6,274 nucleotides of DNA from a virus (lineage: Duplodnaviria; Heunggongvirae; Uroviricota; Caudoviricetes): positions 1-6,274 of the IMG/VR virus record IMGVR_UViG_2617270976_000005. One strand, given 5' to 3'. The notes below the pieces were generated by a model that worked only from the letters and a program-made list of their open reading frames with translations, was not told where the DNA came from and did not search any database. The stretch's first letter is position 1; each line of letters begins with the position of its first letter. Shown in pieces: positions 1 through 6,274 of this stretch. Both the position numbers and the translations under genes were made by a program.

Positions 1-1
1 T

Positions 2-397
2 GGTCTGAGAAATGATGCCGGAGAATTGATAGGTGTGGCGACAGCCGGTAGACCTGTTGCACGACATTTGGACGATGGATTAACGCTTGAAGTAAATCGC
101 ACATGTACCACAGGAGAACGCAACGCTAACAGCGCGCTTTATGGTGCTGTCTGGCGGGCAGCAAAGGCTATGGGTTATCAACGTTGTATTACGTACACCC
201 AGGCAGATGAATCAGGAGCATCTCTCCGCGCAGCTGGTTTTGTTCGTGTGAAAGAGCTTCCTCCAAGAAAAAGCTGGGCGGAATCAAGCGTCGCCCTGCG
301 GAGTAAACGCGATCCGGTCGGAAACGGTGGTGTTCCTCGTGTGCTCTGGGAAATCAGGAGAATGAGTACCACTGGCATTCGCATCAAAGGAGAGTGA
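2..397 (+). CDS. Hypothetical phage protein, 5'-partial (frame open to window edge; first in-window starts are TTG 26 / GTG 35)
   Basis: Open frame from position 2 to TGA 395-397, protein-like composition, stop 1 nt before the next ATG (399). No family recognised from memory. Confidence 0.5.
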   Translation, partial: GLRNDAGELIGVATAGRPVARHLDDGLTLEVNRTCTTGERNANSALYGAVWRAAKAMGYQRCITYTQADESGASLRAAGFVRVKELPPRKSWAESSVALRSKRDPVGNGGVPRVLWEIRRMSTTGIRIKGE

Positions 398-398
398 T

Positions 399-662
399 AT
401 GGCAACTTTGACAAAAAAAGAACAAGCATGGTTGAGCGAATTACAGGACGTTCTTGATCGCTGTCCATCACCGAAAAAAATTGGTTTTTACACCATTGGC
501 GATAAAAGCATTTACCTGTATGACCTGCGCCGCATGGATGAAATCATGGAGGCTCTTGATAATCGTTCGTCAATGGATTGGTGTGTTGCTGTCCATGATA
601 TGAATGCAGGGTTTGATGAAAAGATTTTGTTCCCCTCATCAGTTGAAAGCACTGCGGGTTAA
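399..662 (+). CDS. Hypothetical protein, 87 aa
   Basis: ATG 399 preceded by AAGGAG (387-392, 6-nt spacing); tightly coupled to the upstream ORF; provided ORF track. Function unknown. Confidence 0.55.
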   Translation: MATLTKKEQAWLSELQDVLDRCPSPKKIGFYTIGDKSIYLYDLRRMDEIMEALDNRSSMDWCVAVHDMNAGFDEKILFPSSVESTAG

Positions 663-672
663 GGAGTAACAC

Positions 673-978
673 ATGACCACTATTACCAAAGAACGTATTG
701 AATTGTTCATTAAAAACCCGCTTGAAAACGGGCTTACCCGTGGTGAACAAATGGAACTGGCACGGATTGCGCTGGCATCGCTGGCAGCAGAGCCAGCCGG
801 TAAATTGCATGAATACAAACCAGTGGGATATCAGCGTCTGGTCGATGAGTTAACCATGCTGGTAAAGCAGTTAACCTGGCAACTGAGGAAAGCGAAGCCA
901 GACTGCAAATTACCGGATAAGGCGATGAGTTATCTGGAGCGGAACGGACTGATAAGCGTGGAGGATATTTTACGATGA
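673..978 (+). CDS. Hypothetical protein, 101 aa
   Basis: ATG 673 preceded by AAGGAG (661-666) overlapping the upstream stop; ORF track. Function unknown. Confidence 0.6.
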   Translation: MTTITKERIELFIKNPLENGLTRGEQMELARIALASLAAEPAGKLHEYKPVGYQRLVDELTMLVKQLTWQLRKAKPDCKLPDKAMSYLERNGLISVEDILR

Positions 979-1058
979 CCTGGCCTGAAGCATTAACAAC
1001 GGTAGGAATTGCGATGGCGGTGGCGCTGGTGGTGTATTCGATTTGCCGCTGGGGATAA
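975..1058 (+). CDS. Putative 27-aa hydrophobic micro-protein (MTWPEALTTVGIAMAVALVVYSICRWG)
   Basis: ATG 975 overlaps the stop of the preceding ORF (ATGA), GGAGG 11 nt upstream, single predicted transmembrane-like segment. Below the ORF-track size cutoff; my own translation. Confidence 0.25.
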   Translation: MTWPEALTTVGIAMAVALVVYSICRWG

Positions 1059-1065
1059 AAACGGT

Positions 1066-1093
1066 TTGCGGGAAAAGGAGAGTTAAGTAGAAT
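1066..1093 (+). promoter_or_regulatory. Candidate sigma70 promoter for the hok transcript (TTGCGG, 16-nt spacer, TAGAAT)
   Basis: Hexamers read by eye at 1066-1071 and 1088-1093; would give a leader of about 170 nt before hok. Not computed. Confidence 0.2.
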
Positions 1094-1269
1094 TGCAGCG
1101 GGTGCTTGAGGCTATCTGTCTCAGGCATGAACACCAAAAGGCAGATAGAGAAAAGCCCCAGTTAACATTACGCGTCCGGCAAGACGCTTAACATTAATCT
1201 GAGGCCATATCTATGCTCTACACACGTAGGTTAGCCTCTTACGTGCCGAAAGGCAAGGAGAAGCAGGCT

Positions 1270-1425
1270 ATGAAGCAGCAAAAGGCGATGCTAATCGCCC
1301 TGATCGTCATCTGTTTAACCGTCATAGTGACGGCACTGGTAACGAGGAAAGACCTCTGCGAGGTACGAATCCGAACCGGCCAGACGGAGGTCGCTGTCTT
1401 CACAGCTTACGAACCTGAGGAGTAA
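1270..1425 (+). CDS. hokD: Hok/Gef-family type I toxin, 51 aa (membrane-depolarising peptide)
   Basis: Translation MKQQKAMLIALIVICLTVIVTALVTRKDLCEVRIRTGQTEVAVFTAYEPEE matches my recollection of HokD/RelF and is near-identical to Gef. AAGGAG 1255-1260, 9 nt before ATG 1270. An in-frame upstream ATG at 1213 would give a 70-aa form. Confidence 0.85.
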   Translation: MKQQKAMLIALIVICLTVIVTALVTRKDLCEVRIRTGQTEVAVFTAYEPEE

Positions 1426-1494
1426 GAGACCGGGCGGGGGAGAAATCCCTCGCCACCTCTGATGTGTCAGGCATCCTCAACGCACCCGCACTTA

Positions 1495-1521
1495 ACCCGC
1501 TTCGGCGGGTTTTTGTTTTTA
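1495..1521 (+). terminator. Rho-independent terminator downstream of hok
   Basis: ACCCGC / UUCG loop / GCGGGT hairpin followed by TTTTTGTTTTT. Confidence 0.7.
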
Positions 1522-1644
1522 TTTTCAACGCGTTTGAAGTTTTAGATGGTGCCGGAATAGAATCAAAAATACTTAAGTAGCGCGCAGGGAGAAGAGGGAT
1601 GGACCCCGAAGGGGAAGAGCTATTTATCTGGAAGGATTCTGAAG

Positions 1645-1818
1645 ATGAAAATCGAAGAATTACGTGAAATTTTTAGTGAAGATGGCCTCTATGCTGTGCG
1701 CGTTGAGAATGGGGGTATTACCTACACAGCGTTAATTCCTGATGATCATGTAGTGTTATCTGTTGAGGCATTCATTGAATACTTGGAAAGACTCGGTTTC
1801 AAGGTAGTTCGGGAATAA
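1645..1818 (+). CDS. Hypothetical small acidic protein, 57 aa (MKIEELREIFSEDGLYAVRVENGG...)
   Basis: ATG 1645 with AAGGA 8 nt upstream; protein-like composition; my own translation. Not in the ORF track (under cutoff). Confidence 0.4.
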   Translation: MKIEELREIFSEDGLYAVRVENGGITYTALIPDDHVVLSVEAFIEYLERLGFKVVRE

Positions 1819-1826
1819 GTTATAAT
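1797..1826 (+). promoter_or_regulatory. Candidate promoter with consensus -10 TATAAT (1821-1826) and weak -35 (TTTCAA/TTCAAG)
   Basis: Perfect TATAAT hexamer directly after the stop of the 57-aa ORF; the -35 is poor. Confidence 0.3.
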
Positions 1827-1877
1827 ACGTGAGCCAGCCTGAACAACTGGCAACCTGCAGCGCCATTGGAGATGACA

Positions 1878-2138
1878 ATGGCGCATAATTTCAAATTTCG
1901 CAATTCTGATTCTGCCTTTGCCAGCAGGCACGGGTGGCGTTCTCACGCATTCAAATATGACTGGTATCAGCACGATCCCTGTACTGAAGAACAGGCCGAA
2001 TGGCTGATTCATAACTACCGCAGACGTGGATATGAGTTTAGGAAAGCCCTCAGTGGCGCTTATTGTTCGCCAGCAGCGACTGAAATTAAGCCTGTCCGGA
2101 CGGCTGGCAATAAAAATTATTGCAGAGCCACCGGATAA
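1878..2138 (+). CDS. Uncertain ORF, 86 aa; 3' part overlaps rusA out of frame
   Basis: ATG 1878 with GGAG 6 nt upstream; the first ~50 codons look protein-like, the remainder is an alternate-frame read of the RusA-like region. May mark a mosaic junction. Confidence 0.25.
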   Translation: MAHNFKFRNSDSAFASRHGWRSHAFKYDWYQHDPCTEEQAEWLIHNYRRRGYEFRKALSGAYCSPAATEIKPVRTAGNKNYCRATG

Positions 2139-2307
2139 GCGTCGTCGTGACCTGGACAATATTCTGAAAGCACCACTGGATGCGCTGACGCACGCGGGGT
2201 TGTTAATGGACGATGAGCAGTTTGATGAAATCAATATTGTACGTGGCCAGCCAGTATCTGGTGGACGGCTGGAGATAAGAATTACAGAGGTGGGTGTGCA
2301 TGAATAA
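2026..2307 (+). CDS. rusA: RusA-family Holliday-junction resolvase homolog, apparently N-terminally truncated (93 aa versus about 120 aa)
   Basis: ...AEPPDKRRRDLDNILKAPLDALTHAGLLMDDEQ...GGRLEIRITEVG aligns with the catalytic acidic region of E. coli RusA (PDRRRRDLDN...DALTKAG...DD...GGRLELTITEMG) as I recall it. In-frame TGA at 2005-2007 blocks upstream extension, and the GTG/ATG start has no clear RBS. Confidence 0.6.
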   Translation: MDMSLGKPSVALIVRQQRLKLSLSGRLAIKIIAEPPDKRRRDLDNILKAPLDALTHAGLLMDDEQFDEINIVRGQPVSGGRLEIRITEVGVHE

Positions 2308-2989
2308 CCAGTATTTACAGTTTGTTCGTGAGCAACTCATGATTGCCACTGCAGATCTCAGTGGGTCGACAAAATGCCAGCTGGAAGCCTGGCAGGAAAA
2401 TGCCCTGTTCGATACAGGGCGTTACAGACGCAAAAAAATTCGTTACCGCGATGAGGTAACCGGAAAAATGATCACGCGGGATAATCCCCCGATCCAGGGT
2501 AAACAATCACTGGCGAAAGGCTCATCAATTGCGCTGGTCAGTCCTGTTGAGTTTGCAACATCATCGTGGCGGCGTGCCGTTCTGGAACTGGAAGAACATC
2601 AGAAGGCGTGGTTGTTGTGGTGTTATGGCGGAAACATTTGCTGGGAGCATCAGATCGCGATAACGCAGTGGGTGTGGAGTGAATTTAAAACTCAGTCCGG
2701 CTCCAGAAAAATTGCAGTGAAAACGCTGGAGCGTGTGAAGAAGTTGATCTGGCTGGCGGCACAGGATGTCAGAGGATGGGTTACCGGGTGTGAGGTCTAC
2801 CAGAGACAGGAGCTTGCCAGACTGTGTGGAGTTAAGCCTGATAACTGGAGCCATAATTATGCGAACTACTGGCGTGAGATGTGCGATATTTTTAAGCGCC
2901 TCGATAGAGAATCCTTGATTTGCTCCGTGAAAATAAGAGCGCAACAAAAAGCGACCTTTTCACGACGAGATATTGCAAAAGTCAATTAA
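2300..2989 (+). CDS. Putative late-gene antiterminator Q-like protein, 229 aa
   Basis: Call rests mainly on synteny: overlaps the rusA stop, AGAGG RBS, followed by a promoter-like element and strong hairpin terminator, then late cargo. No similarity to lambda Q itself; family assignment would need an HMM search. Confidence 0.55.
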   Translation: MNNQYLQFVREQLMIATADLSGSTKCQLEAWQENALFDTGRYRRKKIRYRDEVTGKMITRDNPPIQGKQSLAKGSSIALVSPVEFATSSWRRAVLELEEHQKAWLLWCYGGNICWEHQIAITQWVWSEFKTQSGSRKIAVKTLERVKKLIWLAAQDVRGWVTGCEVYQRQELARLCGVKPDNWSHNYANYWREMCDIFKRLDRESLICSVKIRAQQKATFSRRDIAKVN

Positions 2990-3010
2990 ATCGCGTATGT
3001 TTCGTATAAA
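2973..3010 (+). promoter_or_regulatory. Candidate late promoter (PR'-like): TTGCAA, 17-nt spacer, TATGTT; alternative -10 TATAAA at 3005-3010
   Basis: Hexamers read by eye, overlapping the 3' end of the Q-like gene, about 45 nt upstream of the hairpin terminator. Confidence 0.2.
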
Positions 3011-3050
3011 TCTGATATTTTGCCGATTTTGTACGTGATGGCAAAGTAAG

Positions 3051-3078
3051 AAAAAACCACCGCCAGGTGGTTTTTTTT
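3051..3078 (+). terminator. Rho-independent terminator (tR'-like), possibly bidirectional
   Basis: AAAAAA-CCACC-gcca-GGTGG-TTTTTTTT: short GC stem flanked by an A-tract and an 8-T tract. Confidence 0.7.
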
Positions 3079-3201
3079 ATGTCCGAAAATCGCGTCAGTA
3101 CAGTAAACGCGCTGGTGGTTGCGAATACGGGTCTTTCAGCTTGCTGGCTTTTTCGACAAGAGTTATTGGTATGTCACGTTAACCGGAAAAGGGAAAAAGA
3201 C

Positions 3202-3399
3202 ATGCTAAAACAGCAGGATATGACAGAAACCGCCAGAGTGGTGTTTAATGAATTAAGCGTTACCGACCCGGCGACAGTCAGGGAGATTGCGCAGAATACT
3301 TACCTTTCACGCGAACGCTGCCAGTTAATACTGACCCAGCTGGTTATGGCGGGTCTGGCAGACTATCAGTTCGGTTGTTACAGACGCCTTCAGTCCTGA
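3202..3399 (+). CDS. Small winged-helix-like DNA-binding protein, 65 aa (possibly PapI/FaeA-like)
   Basis: ATG 3202 with AAAGGGA upstream. The TVREIAQNTYLSRERCQLILTQLVMAGL segment has helix-turn-helix spacing that I can align by eye with PapI ([26 protein letters not shown]). The longer ORF-track version (3067) starts inside the terminator T-tract and was not used. Confidence 0.4.
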   Translation: MLKQQDMTETARVVFNELSVTDPATVREIAQNTYLSRERCQLILTQLVMAGLADYQFGCYRRLQS

Positions 3400-3412
3400 A
3401 GGCTTTTTTATT
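3386..3412 (+). terminator. Hairpin with U-tract overlapping the stop codon of the small wHTH ORF
   Basis: GCCTTCAG-tc-CTGAAGGC followed by TTTTTTATTT. Confidence 0.55.
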
Positions 3413-3550
3413 TGTGGTAAATGGGCGGCTGGTGGGTGTTAGGGGCACTCACCAGCCATCTGCTCATGCGTCCGGATCACAAGCAAACCTCAGGCCCATC
3501 TGCTTTGCGCAAAAGCAGAATGAGCCTATCAGAGACAGGCTTAATGATCC

Positions 3551-4600
3551 ATGTTTAACACTGTAAAAATATCCAGTTGTGAGTTGATCAACGCTGACTG
3601 CCTGGAATTTATCCGGTCGTTACCCGAAAATTCTGTTGACCTGATAGTCACGGACCCGCCGTACTTTAAAGTGAAGCCTGAGGGCTGGGATAACCAGTGG
3701 AAGGGCGACGATGATTACCTGAAGTGGCTGGACCAGTGTCTGGCGCAGTTCTGGCGGGTGCTGAAACCTGCCGGAAGTCTTTACCTGTTCTGTGGCCATC
3801 GCCTGGCGTCTGACATTGAAATCATGATGCGTGAACGCTTCAGTGTGCTGAACCATATTATCTGGGCGAAGCCGTCCGGACGCTGGAACGGGTGCAACAA
3901 GGAAAGCCTGAGGGCATATTTCCCCGCCACAGAGCGCATTCTGTTCGCGGAACATTATCAGGGGCCGTATCGCCCGAAAGATGCCGGGTATGAGGCGAAG
4001 GGCAGGGCACTGAAACAGCATGTGATGGCCCCGCTGATTTCTTACTTTCGTGATGCGCGCGCGGCCCTGGGGATAACGGCAAAACAGATTGCAGATGCCA
4101 CAGGAAAGAAAAACATGGTGTCGCACTGGTTCAGTGCCAGTCAGTGGCAGCTACCGAACGAAAGCGATTATCTGAAATTACAGTCGCTGTTTGCCCGGGT
4201 GGCAGAAGAGAAACATCAGCGCGGTGAACTGGAAAAGCCCCACCACCAGCTGGTGGATACGTATACGTCACTGAACCGGCAGTATGTGGAGCTGCAGAGT
4301 GAATATAAGCATCTGCGGCGGTATTTTGGTGTGACGGCGCAGGTGCCGTACACGGATGTGTGGACACATAAACCGGTGCAGTTCTATCCCGGGAAACATC
4401 CGTGCGAAAAACCGGCAGAAATGCTGCAGCAGATAATCAGCGCAAGCAGTCGTCCGGGTGACCTGGTTGCAGATTTTTTTATGGGCTCAGGTTCAACGGT
4501 AAAAGCGGCACTGGCGCTCGGGCGTCGTGCGATTGGCGTTGAACTGGAGACCGGACGTTTTGAGCAGACAGTCAGGGAAGTTCAGGATTTAATCGTTTGA
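3551..4600 (+). CDS. DNA methyltransferase, N6_N4_Mtase family (beta-class amino-MTase, likely N6-adenine), 349 aa; no adjacent endonuclease
   Basis: N-terminal catalytic motif IV LIVTDPPYF (nt 3653-3664) and C-terminal AdoMet motif I DFFMGSGST, in beta-class order, with a central HTH-like insert (ITAKQIADATGKKNMVSHWF). An in-frame TGA at 3545-3547 fixes the start at ATG 3551; the RBS is weak. Confidence 0.9.
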   Translation: MFNTVKISSCELINADCLEFIRSLPENSVDLIVTDPPYFKVKPEGWDNQWKGDDDYLKWLDQCLAQFWRVLKPAGSLYLFCGHRLASDIEIMMRERFSVLNHIIWAKPSGRWNGCNKESLRAYFPATERILFAEHYQGPYRPKDAGYEAKGRALKQHVMAPLISYFRDARAALGITAKQIADATGKKNMVSHWFSASQWQLPNESDYLKLQSLFARVAEEKHQRGELEKPHHQLVDTYTSLNRQYVELQSEYKHLRRYFGVTAQVPYTDVWTHKPVQFYPGKHPCEKPAEMLQQIISASSRPGDLVADFFMGSGSTVKAALALGRRAIGVELETGRFEQTVREVQDLIV

Positions 4601-4611
4601 AACGGATGAGA

Positions 4612-4641
4612 TTGCAGAATTAATTACGCACCATTATTATT
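4612..4641 (+). promoter_or_regulatory. Candidate promoter for the tRNA cluster (TTGCAG, 17-nt spacer, TATTAT)
   Basis: Hexamers at 4612-4617 and 4635-4640 place a start site about 2 nt before the first tRNA. Confidence 0.35.
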
Positions 4642-4649
4642 CTGCTTCC

Positions 4650-4725
4650 GGCCCTTTAGCTCAGTGGTGAGAGCGAGCGACTCATAATCGCCAGGTCGCT
4701 GGTTCAAATCCAGCAAGGGCCACCA
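4650..4725 (+). tRNA. tRNA with CAU anticodon, most likely tRNA-Ile2 (lysidine type, ileX/ileZ-like); tRNA-Met not excluded
   Basis: Manual cloverleaf: acceptor GGCCCTT/AAGGGCC, D-arm GCTC/GAGC, anticodon loop CUCAUAA, T-loop TTCAAAT, encoded CCA. Close to E. coli ileX as I recall it. Confidence 0.85.
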
Positions 4726-4732
4726 TCACAAA

Positions 4733-4812
4733 CCGCCATTAGCTTATCAGGAAGAGCAGACGACACGATAACAGGGTTGTTGGTGCGGGGGCGGGTCCCC
4801 GATGGCGGTCCA
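4733..4812 (+). pseudogene. Degenerate tRNA-like relic between the two tRNAs
   Basis: Perfect 7-bp acceptor stem CCGCCAT/ATGGCGG, then the same TA + GCT(T) start of the D-arm as the flanking tRNAs, a discriminator and CCA; but no foldable anticodon arm and a non-canonical 6-nt T-loop (GCGGGT). Confidence 0.3.
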
Positions 4813-4825
4813 TTATCGGTATTCA

Positions 4826-4902
4826 GCGTTGTTAGCTCAGCCGGACAGAGCAATTGCCTTCTAAGCAATCGGTCACTGGTTCGAATCCAGTACAGCGCGC
4901 CA
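4826..4902 (+). tRNA. tRNA-Arg, anticodon UCU (reads AGA, and AGG by wobble)
   Basis: Manual cloverleaf: acceptor GCGTTGT/ACAGCGC (one G-U pair), D-arm GCTC/GAGC, anticodon stem ATTGC/GCAAT with loop CUUCUAA, T-loop TTCGAAT, encoded CCA. Confidence 0.9.
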
Positions 4903-5009
4903 TATTCATTCTTCCAGATTCCTTTCGGCAGAGCCTTATACTGAAATATACCTGGCTCAGGATATTGTTGAAAATATTATATGTTTGTCAAAAATAAAAG
5001 TTCTGTTAA

Positions 5010-5366
5010 GTGTTGATTGAGTGTTTGTTATACGGTCTAATGGTTTTTTCAGCATTAAATATTTATCATTCATATGGTGTGGGTAGAGTGAATATTGATG
5101 AGGCGTCGGGGTGTTTCATCCTTAGGCAGCGTATTGATATAGTCAATGCAGAACGAGCAAAGGCCTTCAGCCGTTTGACAGTTTTGTTCTGTACTCCTGA
5201 TCGTCTTTCGGGAAGAGACGTTATTATTCTGAATAGTGATGCTATACAGAGGGTTTGCGATGAGTTCATGGTGGCTAATTCAGAATTATTTGCTCTTGTT
5301 CAGGAGTACAACAGAATAGCCAGGACCTGTGGTATGGATGAACTTCGGATTACTCATCTGGGGTAG
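5010..5366 (+). CDS. Hypothetical protein in an AT-rich cargo region, 108-118 aa depending on start (GTG 5010 or ATG 5040)
   Basis: ORF track. Composition is more protein-like than the overlapping antisense frame, but neither start has a convincing RBS. No family recognised. Confidence 0.3.
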   Translation: MLIECLLYGLMVFSALNIYHSYGVGRVNIDEASGCFILRQRIDIVNAERAKAFSRLTVLFCTPDRLSGRDVIILNSDAIQRVCDEFMVANSELFALVQEYNRIARTCGMDELRITHLG

Positions 5367-5446
5367 ATACATATCTGGATTATCACCGGTTACGGTAAAA
5401 AGTGATTGCTTACTGTTTTTGTGAATGGCATTGCAGCAGCCGGATA

Positions 5447-5533
5447 ATGTCAGTGCTGGCTGACGGTGTGCTGGTGGCGGGTGTGGTGGTTGCTGCTTTC
5501 CCGTTGCTGAAAAAGAAAACGCTAGACTGTTAG
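5447..5533 (+). CDS. Speculative 28-aa hydrophobic peptide (MSVLADGVLVAGVVVAAFPLLKKKTLDC)
   Basis: My own translation; single hydrophobic stretch with C-terminal KKK. Weak RBS; an in-frame GTG at 5402 would give 44 aa. May be a chance ORF in GT-rich sequence. Confidence 0.15.
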   Translation: MSVLADGVLVAGVVVAAFPLLKKKTLDC

Positions 5534-5757
5534 CCGGGTATCAGTTAGCGGGAGAAATTTTTAAATACTTCACAATTCAGGCGGTTGACTGTTGTCTGGT
5601 TTGCGGGGAGTTTGTTAAAAGAAACTGGCATGGTGAATCCCCCTGTGCGGAGGGGCAATCAGCGAGTAGGTATATGGGATAATCGCGGATTCAGGTGCTG
5701 GTACTGAATTCACCGGGAGGCACCCGGCACCATGCAATGGCACATAGCGCCACTCTC

Positions 5758-5788
5758 CAGCCCCTCTCCGGAGGGGCTGTTTATATTG
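5758..5788 (+). terminator. Strong rho-independent terminator
   Basis: Perfect 9-bp GC-rich stem CAGCCCCTC / tccg / GAGGGGCTG followed by TTTATATTGATTTT. Confidence 0.6.
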
Positions 5789-5810
5789 ATTTTGTCAGAT
5801 GTGAGTAAAC

Positions 5811-5844
5811 TCCTTATGGACTTTGTTGTTTTAGTCCATAAGGA
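5811..5844. repeat. Perfect 12-bp inverted repeat with 10-nt spacer (TCCTTATGGACT-n10-AGTCCATAAGGA)
   Basis: Read directly from the sequence; no U-tract follows on either strand, so more likely an operator or RNA structure than a terminator. Confidence 0.6.
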
Positions 5845-5896
5845 CATATTTGCAGAGTGCAACGGTTATTAAAGCATTCATTCAATACGTTATCTG

Positions 5897-6274
5897 GGTG
5901 ATGCTGCCAACTTACTGATTTAGTGTATGATGGTGTTTTTGAGGTGCTCCAGTGGCTTCTGTTTCTATCAGCTGTCCCTCCTGTTCAGCTACTGACGGGG
6001 TGGTGCGTAACGGCAAAAGCACCGCCGGACATCAGCGCTATCTCTGCTCTCACTGCCGTAAAACATGGCAACTGCAGTTCACTTACACCGCTTCTCAACC
6101 CGGTACGCACCAGAAAATCATTGATATGGCCATGAATGGCGTTGGATGCCGGGCAACAGCCCGCATTATGGGCGTTGGCCTCAACACGATTTTACGTCAC
6201 TTAAAAAACTCAGGCCGCAGTCGGTAACCTCGCGCATACAGCCGGGCAGTGACGTCATCGTCTGCGCGGAAATG
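5897..6274 (+). mobile_element. IS1 insertion sequence, left end and first 378 bp (continues past the window)
   Basis: Left terminal inverted repeat GGTGATGCTGCCAACTTACTGAT at 5897-5919, and insA at the expected offset (IS1 nt 56). Confidence 0.95.
5952..6227 (+). CDS. insA: IS1 InsA (transposition repressor / N-terminal part of the InsAB' transposase), 91 aa
   Basis: Translation [43 protein letters not shown]...LKNSGRSR matches IS1 InsA as I recall it. Confidence 0.95.

Follow-up and report, generated by a model that had tools for sequence, protein, structure and literature searches.

Chi density and map position

We found that a 6,274-nucleotide stretch of prophage DNA (positions 1 to 6,274 of IMG/VR record IMGVR_UViG_2617270976_000005; hereafter the window) carries a genuine cluster of Chi sites, at a density far above that expected by chance or from the host chromosome. 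We consider it probable (roughly 65%) that this cluster is part of the accumulation of Chi between ori and cos in RecBCD-dependent lambdoid phages that have neither a recombination module nor an inhibitor of RecBCD. An exact-match scan of the window located GCTGGTGG on the + (top) strand at 1025, 3111, 3428, 4249 and 5470 (Chi1 to Chi5) and on the − (bottom) strand at 4243-4250, the same six positions and strands that a preliminary description of this DNA had given.

The chance expectation of about 0.1 per strand in that description is correct for a uniform model. Expectations were 0.135 (+) and 0.05 (−) from order-0 composition and 0.45 (+) and 0.10 (−) from an order-2 Markov model, versus 5 (+) and 1 (−) observed. 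Dinucleotide shuffles gave an expectation of 0.20 matches on both strands together, and none of 200 shuffles reached six. In addition, GCTGGTGG was the single commonest 8-mer on the + strand of the window, while its 24 one-mismatch neighbours had two copies in all on that strand. When synonymous codons were shuffled within ORFs, a mean of 1.31 sites was obtained, compared to four in-ORF Chi sites in the window (P = 0.008). Furthermore, the window contains 0.80 (+) and 0.16 (−) Chi per kb versus 0.202 (+) and 0.055 (−) in a chromosomal background of 109 kb that lies beside a related prophage and is not the window's own flank, an approximately 4-fold difference (Poisson P about 0.006-0.01). The preliminary description had reasoned that a match with the chromosome in both Chi density and orientation would imply passive amelioration; density did not match this 109-kb flank, whereas orientation did (83% + in the window, 79% on the leading strand of the flank). 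Against the upstream rate of its own relatives, the window, which was picked for its density, is unremarkable (P = 0.18).

The window corresponds to the right-arm regulatory part, or nin–Q–methylase–tRNA segment, of an mEp460/LLS-type lambdoid prophage. It contains nin genes, hok/sok, a truncated rusA, Q, a small ORF, a DNA methylase gene, two tRNA genes, a DUF3927 gene and STnc100, with every gene on the + strand; Q, RusA, Hok and the methylase were identified by a Pfam search. The window is 96-100% identical to E. coli prophages, and the RecBCD of such a host reads GCTGGTGG. The GTG-start form of the Q protein had no database record; through its ATG-start form and the methylase, the only 100% matches to the window were short draft contigs of up to 15 kb, and relatives therefore stood in for the left arm and the chromosomal flanks. 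The position of the late antiterminator gene Q (2300..2989, +; Pfam Phage_antiter_Q, E = 4.6e-82) fixes the orientation of the phage map, with late transcription and cos to the right. Many E. coli prophage contigs encode the exact Q protein, followed after 8-9 kb by Nu1/A terminase genes on that strand. Where E. coli contigs have identical Q and methylase proteins, the distance from these to the Nu1/A terminase, gpW and portal genes further downstream is 8-9 kb, again on one strand. The gene order is lambda-like, with Q, late genes and cos/terminase running rightward on one strand. In the relatives, from which its position relative to the Chi sites of the window was deduced, cos is located about 6 kb downstream of the window.

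Just after Q there is a tR'-like intrinsic terminator-like hairpin with a T-run (3051..3078, +), which marks the left boundary of a conserved block of 480 bp, followed by an annotated 65-codon ORF (3202-3399, +). The N6/N4 DNA methyltransferase gene (3551..4600, +; Pfam N6_N4_Mtase, E = 2.2e-44), 73% identical to the LLS methylase region, carries Chi4 and the reverse Chi; Chi5 lies in the gene for a 43-codon DUF3927 membrane peptide (5402-5533, +), and Chi1 in an unannotated hydrophobic ORF of 27 codons (975-1058, +). The five + sites had been described as lying on the coding strand, which is right in that all genes are on +, but only Chi4 and Chi5 lie inside annotated genes. The prophage has decayed by a 1.27-kb deletion and an IS1 element, which makes its present-day function doubtful.

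Individual sites and their conservation

Chi1 (1025..1032, +) is read as x-CTG-GTG-x (Ala-Leu-Val-Val) in the 27-codon ORF and was intact in six of six homologous haplotypes, with flank identity as low as 85%. Chi2 (3111..3118, +), intact in 22 of 27 haplotypes, follows the terminator by approximately 33 nt and precedes the annotated 65-codon ORF, within an unused in-frame extension of that ORF. The intergenic Chi3 (3428..3435, +) was intact in 21 of 23 haplotypes and makes up the 5' arm of a stem-loop (3421-3467) that is stable (−30.7 kcal/mol, z −5.7) and was kept in eight haplotypes including LLS. The haplotype comparison gave no compensatory pairs in this hairpin, and thus no covariation support.

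The palindromic context claimed for the fourth site was also found: the reverse copy and Chi4 together form the 14-bp palindrome CCACCAGCTGGTGG. Its left half is the reverse Chi (4243..4250, −; CCACCAGC on the + strand), within codons His-His-Gln-Leu-Val. Because 18 of the 22 haplotypes of the methylase have it, including some as little as 75% identical, the reverse Chi is probably the older member of the pair. Chi4 (4249..4256, +; in-frame CTG-GTG, Leu-Val, of the methylase) was intact only where identity reached 95.8% or more, the remaining relatives reading GCTGGTCA, and it reappears at the homologous LLS position 40138. Chi5 (5470..5477, +; in-frame CTG-GTG, Val-Leu-Val-Ala, of the DUF3927 gene) was intact only at identities of 98% or above and reads ACTGGTGG or TTTGGTGG in more distant relatives. 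The CTG-GTG frame occurs at four of the five + sites.

Neither Chi2 (intact fraction 0.86, rank 264 of 554 octamer windows) nor Chi3 (0.95, rank 198 of 554) was better conserved than its flanks in the same alignment. These ranks give no signal of site-specific purifying selection, which was rejected; Chi3 may be held by its hairpin. A favourable 3' flank of Chi has A or G at nucleotides 4-7 (Taylor 2016, PMC5041463). Purines occupy one of these four positions at Chi1, three at Chi2 and two each at Chi3, Chi4 and Chi5, with the best context at none; prediction of Chi strength from the flanks was uninformative and was dropped.

Chi in related prophages and phages

For the family sample, the Nu1-type small terminase gene served as the anchor in 80 IMG/VR loci, with 10 kb taken on each side. 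In pooled counts, the 10 kb upstream of Nu1 contained 0.39 (+) and 0.21 (−) Chi per kb, versus 0.037 (+) and 0.007 (−) in the 10 kb of head genes downstream. Pooled counts alone were rejected as evidence of enrichment because the 80 loci are related: when each homologous segment was counted once, the upstream values fell to 0.16 (+) and 0.05 (−) per kb, which is host-like. After correction for shared ancestry, widely shared upstream modules had approximately 0.8 Chi per kb versus approximately 0.02 in head modules; the contrast is limited to widely shared modules, and the upstream excess comes from about a dozen site families that are widely shared. The shared head modules are Chi-poor despite a higher G+C (0.538 vs 0.479) and a similar skew. 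Judged in these relatives, Chi is concentrated in the right arm, from ori to cos. Chi was also tried as a marker of mosaic boundaries and rejected, since 17.8% of 670 unique breakpoints in the 80 loci were within 200 bp of a Chi compared to 22.6% of random shared positions.

The nearest intact relative has 11 top-strand and 3 bottom-strand Chi between cro and Nu1 (21 kb) and none in its terminase genes (locus L010), and a further prophage (L001) has 12 from cro to Nu1 and none in its head genes. mEp460, the closest phage match to the window, has 7 top-strand Chi in 45.9 kb, and LLS has 20 top-strand and 3 bottom-strand sites. Lambda (NC_001416), given in the preliminary description as a phage with no native Chi, indeed has none on either strand. 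A Pfam search of the early-left ORFs of mEp460 found no Gam, Bet, RecT or Erf; the only matches were Int, Xis, a DnaQ-like exonuclease (as in LLS), DUF1482, DicB, DUF1391 and repressor. The annotation of L001 agrees, with no early-left recombinase or RecBCD inhibitor.

The 5 top:1 bottom orientation of the window is mostly the active sense for RecBCD entering at the right cos end. The claim of co-oriented enrichment holds for the 5:1 ratio itself, but the ratio is no greater than expected from composition alone (81% of window Chi on +) or from the host leading strand (79%). Among the 80 related loci, the + share was 64-70%, below the composition prediction of 78%, and the observed/expected ratio was 14.7 for the 'inactive' orientation versus 7.3 for the active one. 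Both orientations were enriched upstream of cos and depleted in head genes, and the inactive-orientation Chi of Nu1-type relatives tends to sit nearer ori. In E. coli 131, a related prophage has its late strand on the leading strand of the flank, which is the Chi-rich one. Published models of Chi in lambdoid phages have RecBCD entering from the right end only. It seems to us a long shot that the ori-to-cos interval has two-sided protection against RecBCD, covering entry at the cos end as well as at ori-derived ends; if it were so, the ori-derived ends could be, for instance, rolling-circle tails or broken forks, and the Chi3 hairpin arm and the palindromic Chi4 pair might be two-way sites and not accidents.

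Explanations and comparison with known systems

According to our preferred reading, mEp460/LLS-type phages, with no recombination module and no RecBCD inhibitor, would rely on the RecBCD-RecA pathway of the host. When terminase cuts cos, the left end would be covered and the right end left open; RecBCD would enter the right end, move leftward past the lysis genes and then Q and nin, and approach the 5'-GCTGGTGG-3' of the top (late-gene) strand from the 3' side. Degradation would stop at Chi and RecA would be loaded, so that the genome is saved and recombinant concatemers are made for packaging, and the five + Chi of the window would be members of this right-arm accumulation. The sites, their strand, their excess over all the null models used and their map position with respect to the terminase genes of relatives come from this analysis; the RecBCD mechanism, and the RecBCD-dependent growth of a related phage, come from the literature. 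Selection of Chi in phage DNA against RecBCD, as proposed in the preliminary description, is the published explanation for this class, and the window fits it; selection on these five sites themselves did not find support. The fit lies in the map position, the strand relative to cos, the approximately 4-fold density and two sites shared with LLS, and orientation carries little weight. We infer that the prophage had neither Gam nor a recombinase, that its five Chi are active and that they were placed by selection rather than descent.

Descent and composition, with no selection on Chi here, offer a less probable account that still deserves weight: a handful of Chi-bearing modules would by chance be widely shared in E. 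coli lambdoid prophages, a G-rich skew and the abundant Leu-Val pair CTG-GTG on an all-+ coding strand would favour + Chi, and a long-resident, decaying prophage would drift to host-like Chi content and leading-strand orientation. This agrees with the CTG-GTG frame at four of five + sites, the 81% on + predicted from composition, the 79% + of a host flank that is co-oriented with the related prophage's late strand, the host-level upstream density in non-redundant counts, the ordinary conservation of Chi2 and Chi3 relative to their flanks and the decay shown by IS1 and the deletion; moreover, Zheng et al. caution that Chi builds up in cryptic prophages as it does in the chromosome (PMC12315714). 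However, amelioration cannot overshoot its target, and the density is approximately 4-fold that of the host flank; head modules have approximately 0.02 Chi per kb despite higher G+C and similar skew, the synonymous shuffle gave P = 0.008, one-mismatch neighbours are almost missing, and the same pattern is present in the virion-derived relatives LLS and mEp460. Passive amelioration during long residence, the outcome that the preliminary description had set against selection, is therefore insufficient alone, since it explains neither a density approximately four times that of the host flank nor head genes of the same phages that are almost free of Chi.

Host-level selection would likewise not give four times the chromosomal density, nor would it spare the head genes of the same prophage, which makes it very unlikely that prophage Chi, co-oriented with replication, aids RecBCD fork repair and lowers the cost of carriage. 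This idea was raised by Bobay et al. (PMC3784561) and is in line with the late strand of a related prophage in E. coli 131 lying on the Chi-rich leading strand of the flank. We give even less credence to a local reason, unrelated to RecBCD, for each site, whereby Chi3 would be kept as an arm of a conserved stem-loop ahead of the methylase gene, the forward and reverse copies at Chi4 as His-His-Gln-Leu-Val codons, and Chi1, Chi2 and Chi5 as Leu-Val in short hydrophobic peptides. The codon frames fit, CCACCAGC is kept to 75% identity in the methylase, and the hairpin at 3421-3467 (−30.7 kcal/mol, z −5.7) is found in eight haplotypes including LLS. Yet five unrelated constraints that all give one octamer, also the top 8-mer, would be left unexplained; synonymous alternatives were available and unused, the + copy at Chi4, like Chi5, is a recent change and not a conserved codon pair, and the Chi3 hairpin has no compensatory changes.

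Chi marks DNA as 'self' for RecBCD. A phage whose exposed end is filled with Chi would escape degradation and borrow the recombination machinery of the host instead of its own, and would probably escape CRISPR spacer capture too. This strategy was described for lambdoid phages in 2013 and tested with phage LLS in 2025, and the window is one more example of it, with no new idea. For annotation, a dense top-strand Chi cluster by Q suggests that a prophage probably belongs to the RecBCD-dependent, Gam-less class.

The Chi pattern of the window is already published for lambda-like phages without their own recombination genes and is ordinary, not novel. Bobay, Touchon and Rocha (2013, PLoS Genet 9:e1003825, PMC3784561) found Chi concentrated between ori and cos in lambdoid phages without a recombinase or Gam, with Chi in Rec− Inh− lambdoids up to 3 times the E. 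coli core density (PMC3784561). The window shares with that class the host group, the nin-to-terminase region and the excess (about 3-4 times here), and in both studies lambda, with Gam and without Chi, serves as the contrast. Their study is without an analysis of strand orientation, whereas here both orientations were enriched upstream and depleted in head genes.

In phage LLS, 20 of 23 Chi are actively oriented (Zheng, Casjens, Davidson, Amundsen and Smith 2025, Genome Res 35:1767, PMC12315714), Chi sites cluster at the right end and RecBCD helps growth (PMC12315714). The window has in common with the LLS class a lambda-like map, Chi as the top octamer, mostly top-strand sites and right-end clustering, and with LLS itself a methylase gene between Q and the lysis genes. 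LLS 39318 and 40138 are positional homologues of Chi3 and Chi4 at 73% overall identity, the former inside a 22-nt invariant island, and the LLS immunity region is closest to mEp460, likewise the closest phage match of the window. The two differ in that nucleotide identity is 73% over 1.2 kb only, that the relatives of the window have a Nu1/A-type terminase, unlike LLS, and that LLS is a viable phage with growth data, whereas the window covers 6.3 kb of a decayed prophage known from sequence alone. The high-Chi class of Zheng et al. has at least 8 top-strand Chi per genome (PMC12315714), a threshold that counts whole genomes, whereas the window is a segment with 5 in 6.3 kb. The prophage would fall into this high-Chi class lacking a Rec module, with the absence of Gam and recombinase deduced from relatives, as the early-left operon lies outside the window.

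As summarized in PMC12315714, chi+ lambda red gam (Lam/Stahl 1974; Faulds 1979; Kobayashi 1982) has the same octamer and follows the same rule, in that Chi is active only when facing the open right cos end and helps when Gam is absent; those sites are single laboratory mutations in a Chi-free phage, whereas the window has several natural prophage sites. The E. coli chromosome has the same motif at a similar strand ratio (79% vs 83%), and the window is the denser of the two.

Chi excess and its setting in the prophage segment

A pattern search of the whole window located the Chi octamer GCTGGTGG on the + strand at 1025, 3111, 3428, 4249 and 5470 (Chi1 to Chi5) and on the − strand at 4243-4250, the same six positions and strands as in the preliminary description. 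The palindromic context that it had noted for the fourth site and the reverse copy is a perfect 14-bp palindrome, CCACCAGCTGGTGG, at 4243-4256, which encodes His-His-Gln-Leu-Val in the methylase. Dinucleotide-preserving shuffles gave a mean of 0.20 matches, and six were reached in none of 200; Markov expectations were 0.135 (order 0) and 0.45 (order 2) for the + strand and 0.05 and 0.10 for the − strand. In addition, GCTGGTGG is the most frequent + strand 8-mer of the window, and its 24 single-mismatch neighbours amount to two copies altogether on that strand. The cluster is correctly observed and statistically real, and the excess is specific to Chi, not general to G/T-rich sequence.

Using Pfam, Rfam and ARAGORN, we placed all window genes on the + strand: three small nin-region ORFs (before 978), hok/sok (the hok toxin gene with the sok antisense RNA, 1100-1425), a Rem-like ORF (1645-1818), a 5'-truncated rusA (2053-2307), the Q antiterminator (2300-2989) with a tR'-like terminator (3051-3078), a 65-codon ORF (3202-3399) with a terminator of its own behind it, an N6/N4 DNA methyltransferase (3551-4600), a tRNA with anticodon CAT (4650-4725; Ile in the RefSeq annotation of relatives), tRNA-Arg with anticodon TCT (4826-4902), a DUF3927 peptide (5402-5533), a copy of the STnc100 sRNA (5599-5788) and IS1 (from about 5897 past the window end at 6274; InsA ORF 5952-6227). 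The tRNA pair (4650-4902) stands where Stx phages have stx just downstream. In relatives, the Nu1/A terminase, gpW and portal genes come next on the same strand, with the Nu1 start ~6 kb past the right end of the window; together with the gene map, this makes the window a right-arm segment, from replication genes to cos.

BLAST searches showed a mosaic lambdoid prophage segment whose best phage match is mEp460, and in no complete E. coli genome did a single locus cover over 75% of it. Bases 1-4646 matched draft E. coli contigs at 100%. A 254-kb contig matched 1-2052 and 2051-5896 at 99.8-100%; between these two parts it carries a further 1.27 kb, DUF968 and the start of rusA, which the window has lost. 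The deletion point is at ~2051-2053, and the missing part corresponds to 7231-8502 of the nearest intact relative, L010 (a 90-codon ORF, DUF968 and the 5' part of rusA); the remaining RusA ORF covers profile positions 36-124 only. In L010 the deleted segment has one + Chi (7556) and two − Chi (7962, 8014), and in some other relatives two + sites. Furthermore, the prophage is interrupted downstream of the sRNA by the IS1 copy, to which the ~15,000 plasmid hits of the E. coli search are due. The window prophage thus shows decay.

Chi4 and Chi5 lie in annotated genes (methylase and DUF3927), Chi1 within an unannotated 27-codon hydrophobic ORF, and Chi2 ~33 nt past the tR'-like terminator, in a stretch that would extend the 65-codon ORF in frame but is unused, while Chi3 is intergenic. 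The frame is x-CTG-GTG-x (Leu-Val) at Chi1, Chi2, Chi4 and Chi5. When synonymous codons were shuffled within each ORF, keeping its own codon pool with the Chi codons included, the four in-ORF sites compared with a mean of 1.31 (P=0.008); with codons sampled from pooled window-wide usage, 0.42 were expected. Codon usage is a partial contributor to the Chi count and insufficient as its full cause.

Conservation of the individual sites

Chi1 was intact in 6/6 homologous haplotypes, Chi2 in 22/27 and Chi3 in 21/23. An intact Chi4 was confined to relatives with at least 95.8% identity, the others having GCTGGTCA, and an intact Chi5 to relatives with at least 98%; judged by these haplotypes, both + sites are evolutionarily recent. 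The reverse Chi was intact in 18/22 haplotypes, down to 75% identity. The − strand Chi of the palindrome is the widespread and probably the older state, and the + strand Chi occurs in close relatives only, plus the Chi-rich lambdoid phage LLS, where the − copy is gone by a synonymous CAC to CAT change.

A 480-bp block (3070-3550) contains Chi2 and Chi3 along with the 65-codon ORF, which has weak TrmB-like HTH similarity, and two terminators. The block is kept across differing Q alleles and downstream cargo (a methylase or an AraC-type gene), with a sharp conservation drop at both edges. Within it, no extra conservation of Chi2 and Chi3 over other octamers was found, and the haplotype comparison therefore gave no site-level evidence of selection on the window Chi.

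Chi3 also forms the 5' arm of a very stable predicted RNA stem-loop at 3421-3467 (arms 3427-3438 and 3446-3457; MFE -30.7 kcal/mol, z -5.7), between the terminator of the small ORF and the methylase start. The structure is retained in 8 haplotypes, among them that of LLS, where an invariant 22-nt island, AAATGGGCGGCTGGTGGGTGTT, stands between diverged flanks. No compensatory changes were seen in the stem-loop, changes in the 3' arm being one-sided and wobble-compatible. In some relatives this 3' arm is a full reverse Chi.

Regional distribution in Nu1-type prophages and the host

We fetched 80 IMG/VR loci via the Nu1-type small terminase and not via the Chi-bearing region. The 10 kb upstream of Nu1 (G+C 0.479) had 0.39 (+) and 0.21 (−) Chi per kb, 7.3 and 14.7 times the order 2 expectation, whereas the 10 kb of head genes downstream (G+C 0.538) had 0.037 and 0.007 (0.47 and 0.56 times). 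One-mismatch neighbours were near expectation on both sides. Because the loci are related, redundancy was corrected in two ways. Counting each homologous segment once gave host-like upstream densities of 0.16 (+) and 0.05 (−) per kb, and copy-number weighting located the upstream excess in widely shared modules: segments in at least 10 loci had ~0.8 Chi per kb upstream (14.5 effective kb, ~12 effective sites) and 0.02 downstream (17.3 effective kb, 0.3 sites). By this weighted comparison the regional contrast is robust, its basis being a dozen or so common sites. Clustering by flanking sequence gave 28 (+) and 12 (−) independent upstream site families. The + share of upstream Chi was 64-70%, below the 78% predicted from composition, and the window was no outlier in the family (six sites, P=0.18; five of six on +, P=0.31).

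Lambda-type head genes that are widely shared among these loci are depleted of Chi on both strands (~0.5 observed/expected) despite a higher G+C than upstream. The − strand sites lie mostly 6-9 kb before Nu1, toward the replication genes, and are almost absent from the last 2 kb before cos; + strand sites are spread more evenly. A placement of Chi near mosaic boundaries was rejected, homology breakpoints among the 80 loci not being enriched close to Chi.

As host reference we used 109 kb of chromosome adjoining a related prophage in E. coli strain 131, with 0.202 (+) and 0.055 (−) Chi per kb (79% on +); the late-gene strand of that prophage is the Chi-rich strand of the flank. Densities in the window are 0.80 and 0.16 per kb, ~four and ~three times these rates (Poisson P about 0.006-0.01). 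The preliminary description had offered passive amelioration as the alternative if Chi matched the chromosomal background; against this flank the orientation matches, the strand ratio being equal, but the density does not. The prophage in strain 131 has 12 Chi from cro to Nu1, and 7 kb of its head genes are free of Chi.

RecBCD, rival explanations and known Chi-rich lambdoids

By the RecBCD/cos mechanism of established lambda genetics (as cited in PMC12315714), cutting at cos leaves the left end covered by terminase, and RecBCD enters at the right end, travels leftward and reads 5'-GCTGGTGG-3' on the strand with its 3' end at the right. At Chi, degradation gives way to the loading of RecA; where a phage has neither Gam nor its own recombinase, this switch protects the genome and supplies the recombination that concatemers require. 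The five + sites have the orientation read from the right end and lie ~6-11 kb from its predicted position. We consider RecBCD switching at Chi the likeliest reason for the abundant sites in the lineage of the window prophage, with a probability of about two in three. The window prophage presumably had neither Gam nor a recombinase, its Chi sites would be active, and selection rather than descent may underlie their presence in this copy.

Descent combined with composition and host-like drift accounts for the strand ratio and the absent site-level conservation but leaves the fourfold excess over the host and the Chi-free head genes unexplained, and we regard it as unlikely. A benefit to the host through fork repair makes no prediction of a density above that of the chromosome and seems quite improbable. 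Constraints that act locally on the single sites, for example the hairpin or the Leu-Val codons, do not explain the same octamer in five unrelated places and are highly improbable as the cause. The RecBCD reading in the preliminary description, co-oriented sites possibly under selection, is essentially the published one, but co-orientation adds little beyond composition.

Chi abundance in lambdoids is already known computationally (2013) and experimentally (2025). Bobay, Touchon and Rocha (2013; PMC3784561) surveyed 275 lambdoid phages and prophages and found over-representation of Chi at a median observed/expected of 2.3 (3.1 without recombinase), avoidance in phages with Gam or Abc2, and a concentration from replication genes to terminase at up to three times the E. 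coli core density; orientation was absent from that analysis. Enrichment in the 'inactive' orientation over the same interval of Nu1-type phages is outside the main text of both papers and opens a new reading, to which we give low probability. As the preliminary description stated, lambda has no native Chi (0 on both strands); mEp460 has 7 top and 2 bottom. Early-left ORFs of mEp460 matched only integrase, excisionase, a DnaQ-like exonuclease domain, DUF1482, DicB, DUF1391 and repressor, and none showed likeness to Gam, Bet, RecT or Erf. LLS, isolated by Zheng, Casjens, Davidson, Amundsen and Smith (2025; PMC12315714), has no Rec module; Chi is its top octamer, RecB and RecC enhance its growth, and in cI and cro it most resembles an mEp460 phage. 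The same study found at least 8 active-orientation Chi in 62/68 no-Rec-module lambdoids and argued that neither codon usage nor G+C is the cause. Our recount of LLS gave 20 top and 3 bottom Chi. Its 39309-40470 aligns with window 3419-4581 at 73% identity, and its Chi at 39318 and 40138 occupy the positions of Chi3 and Chi4.
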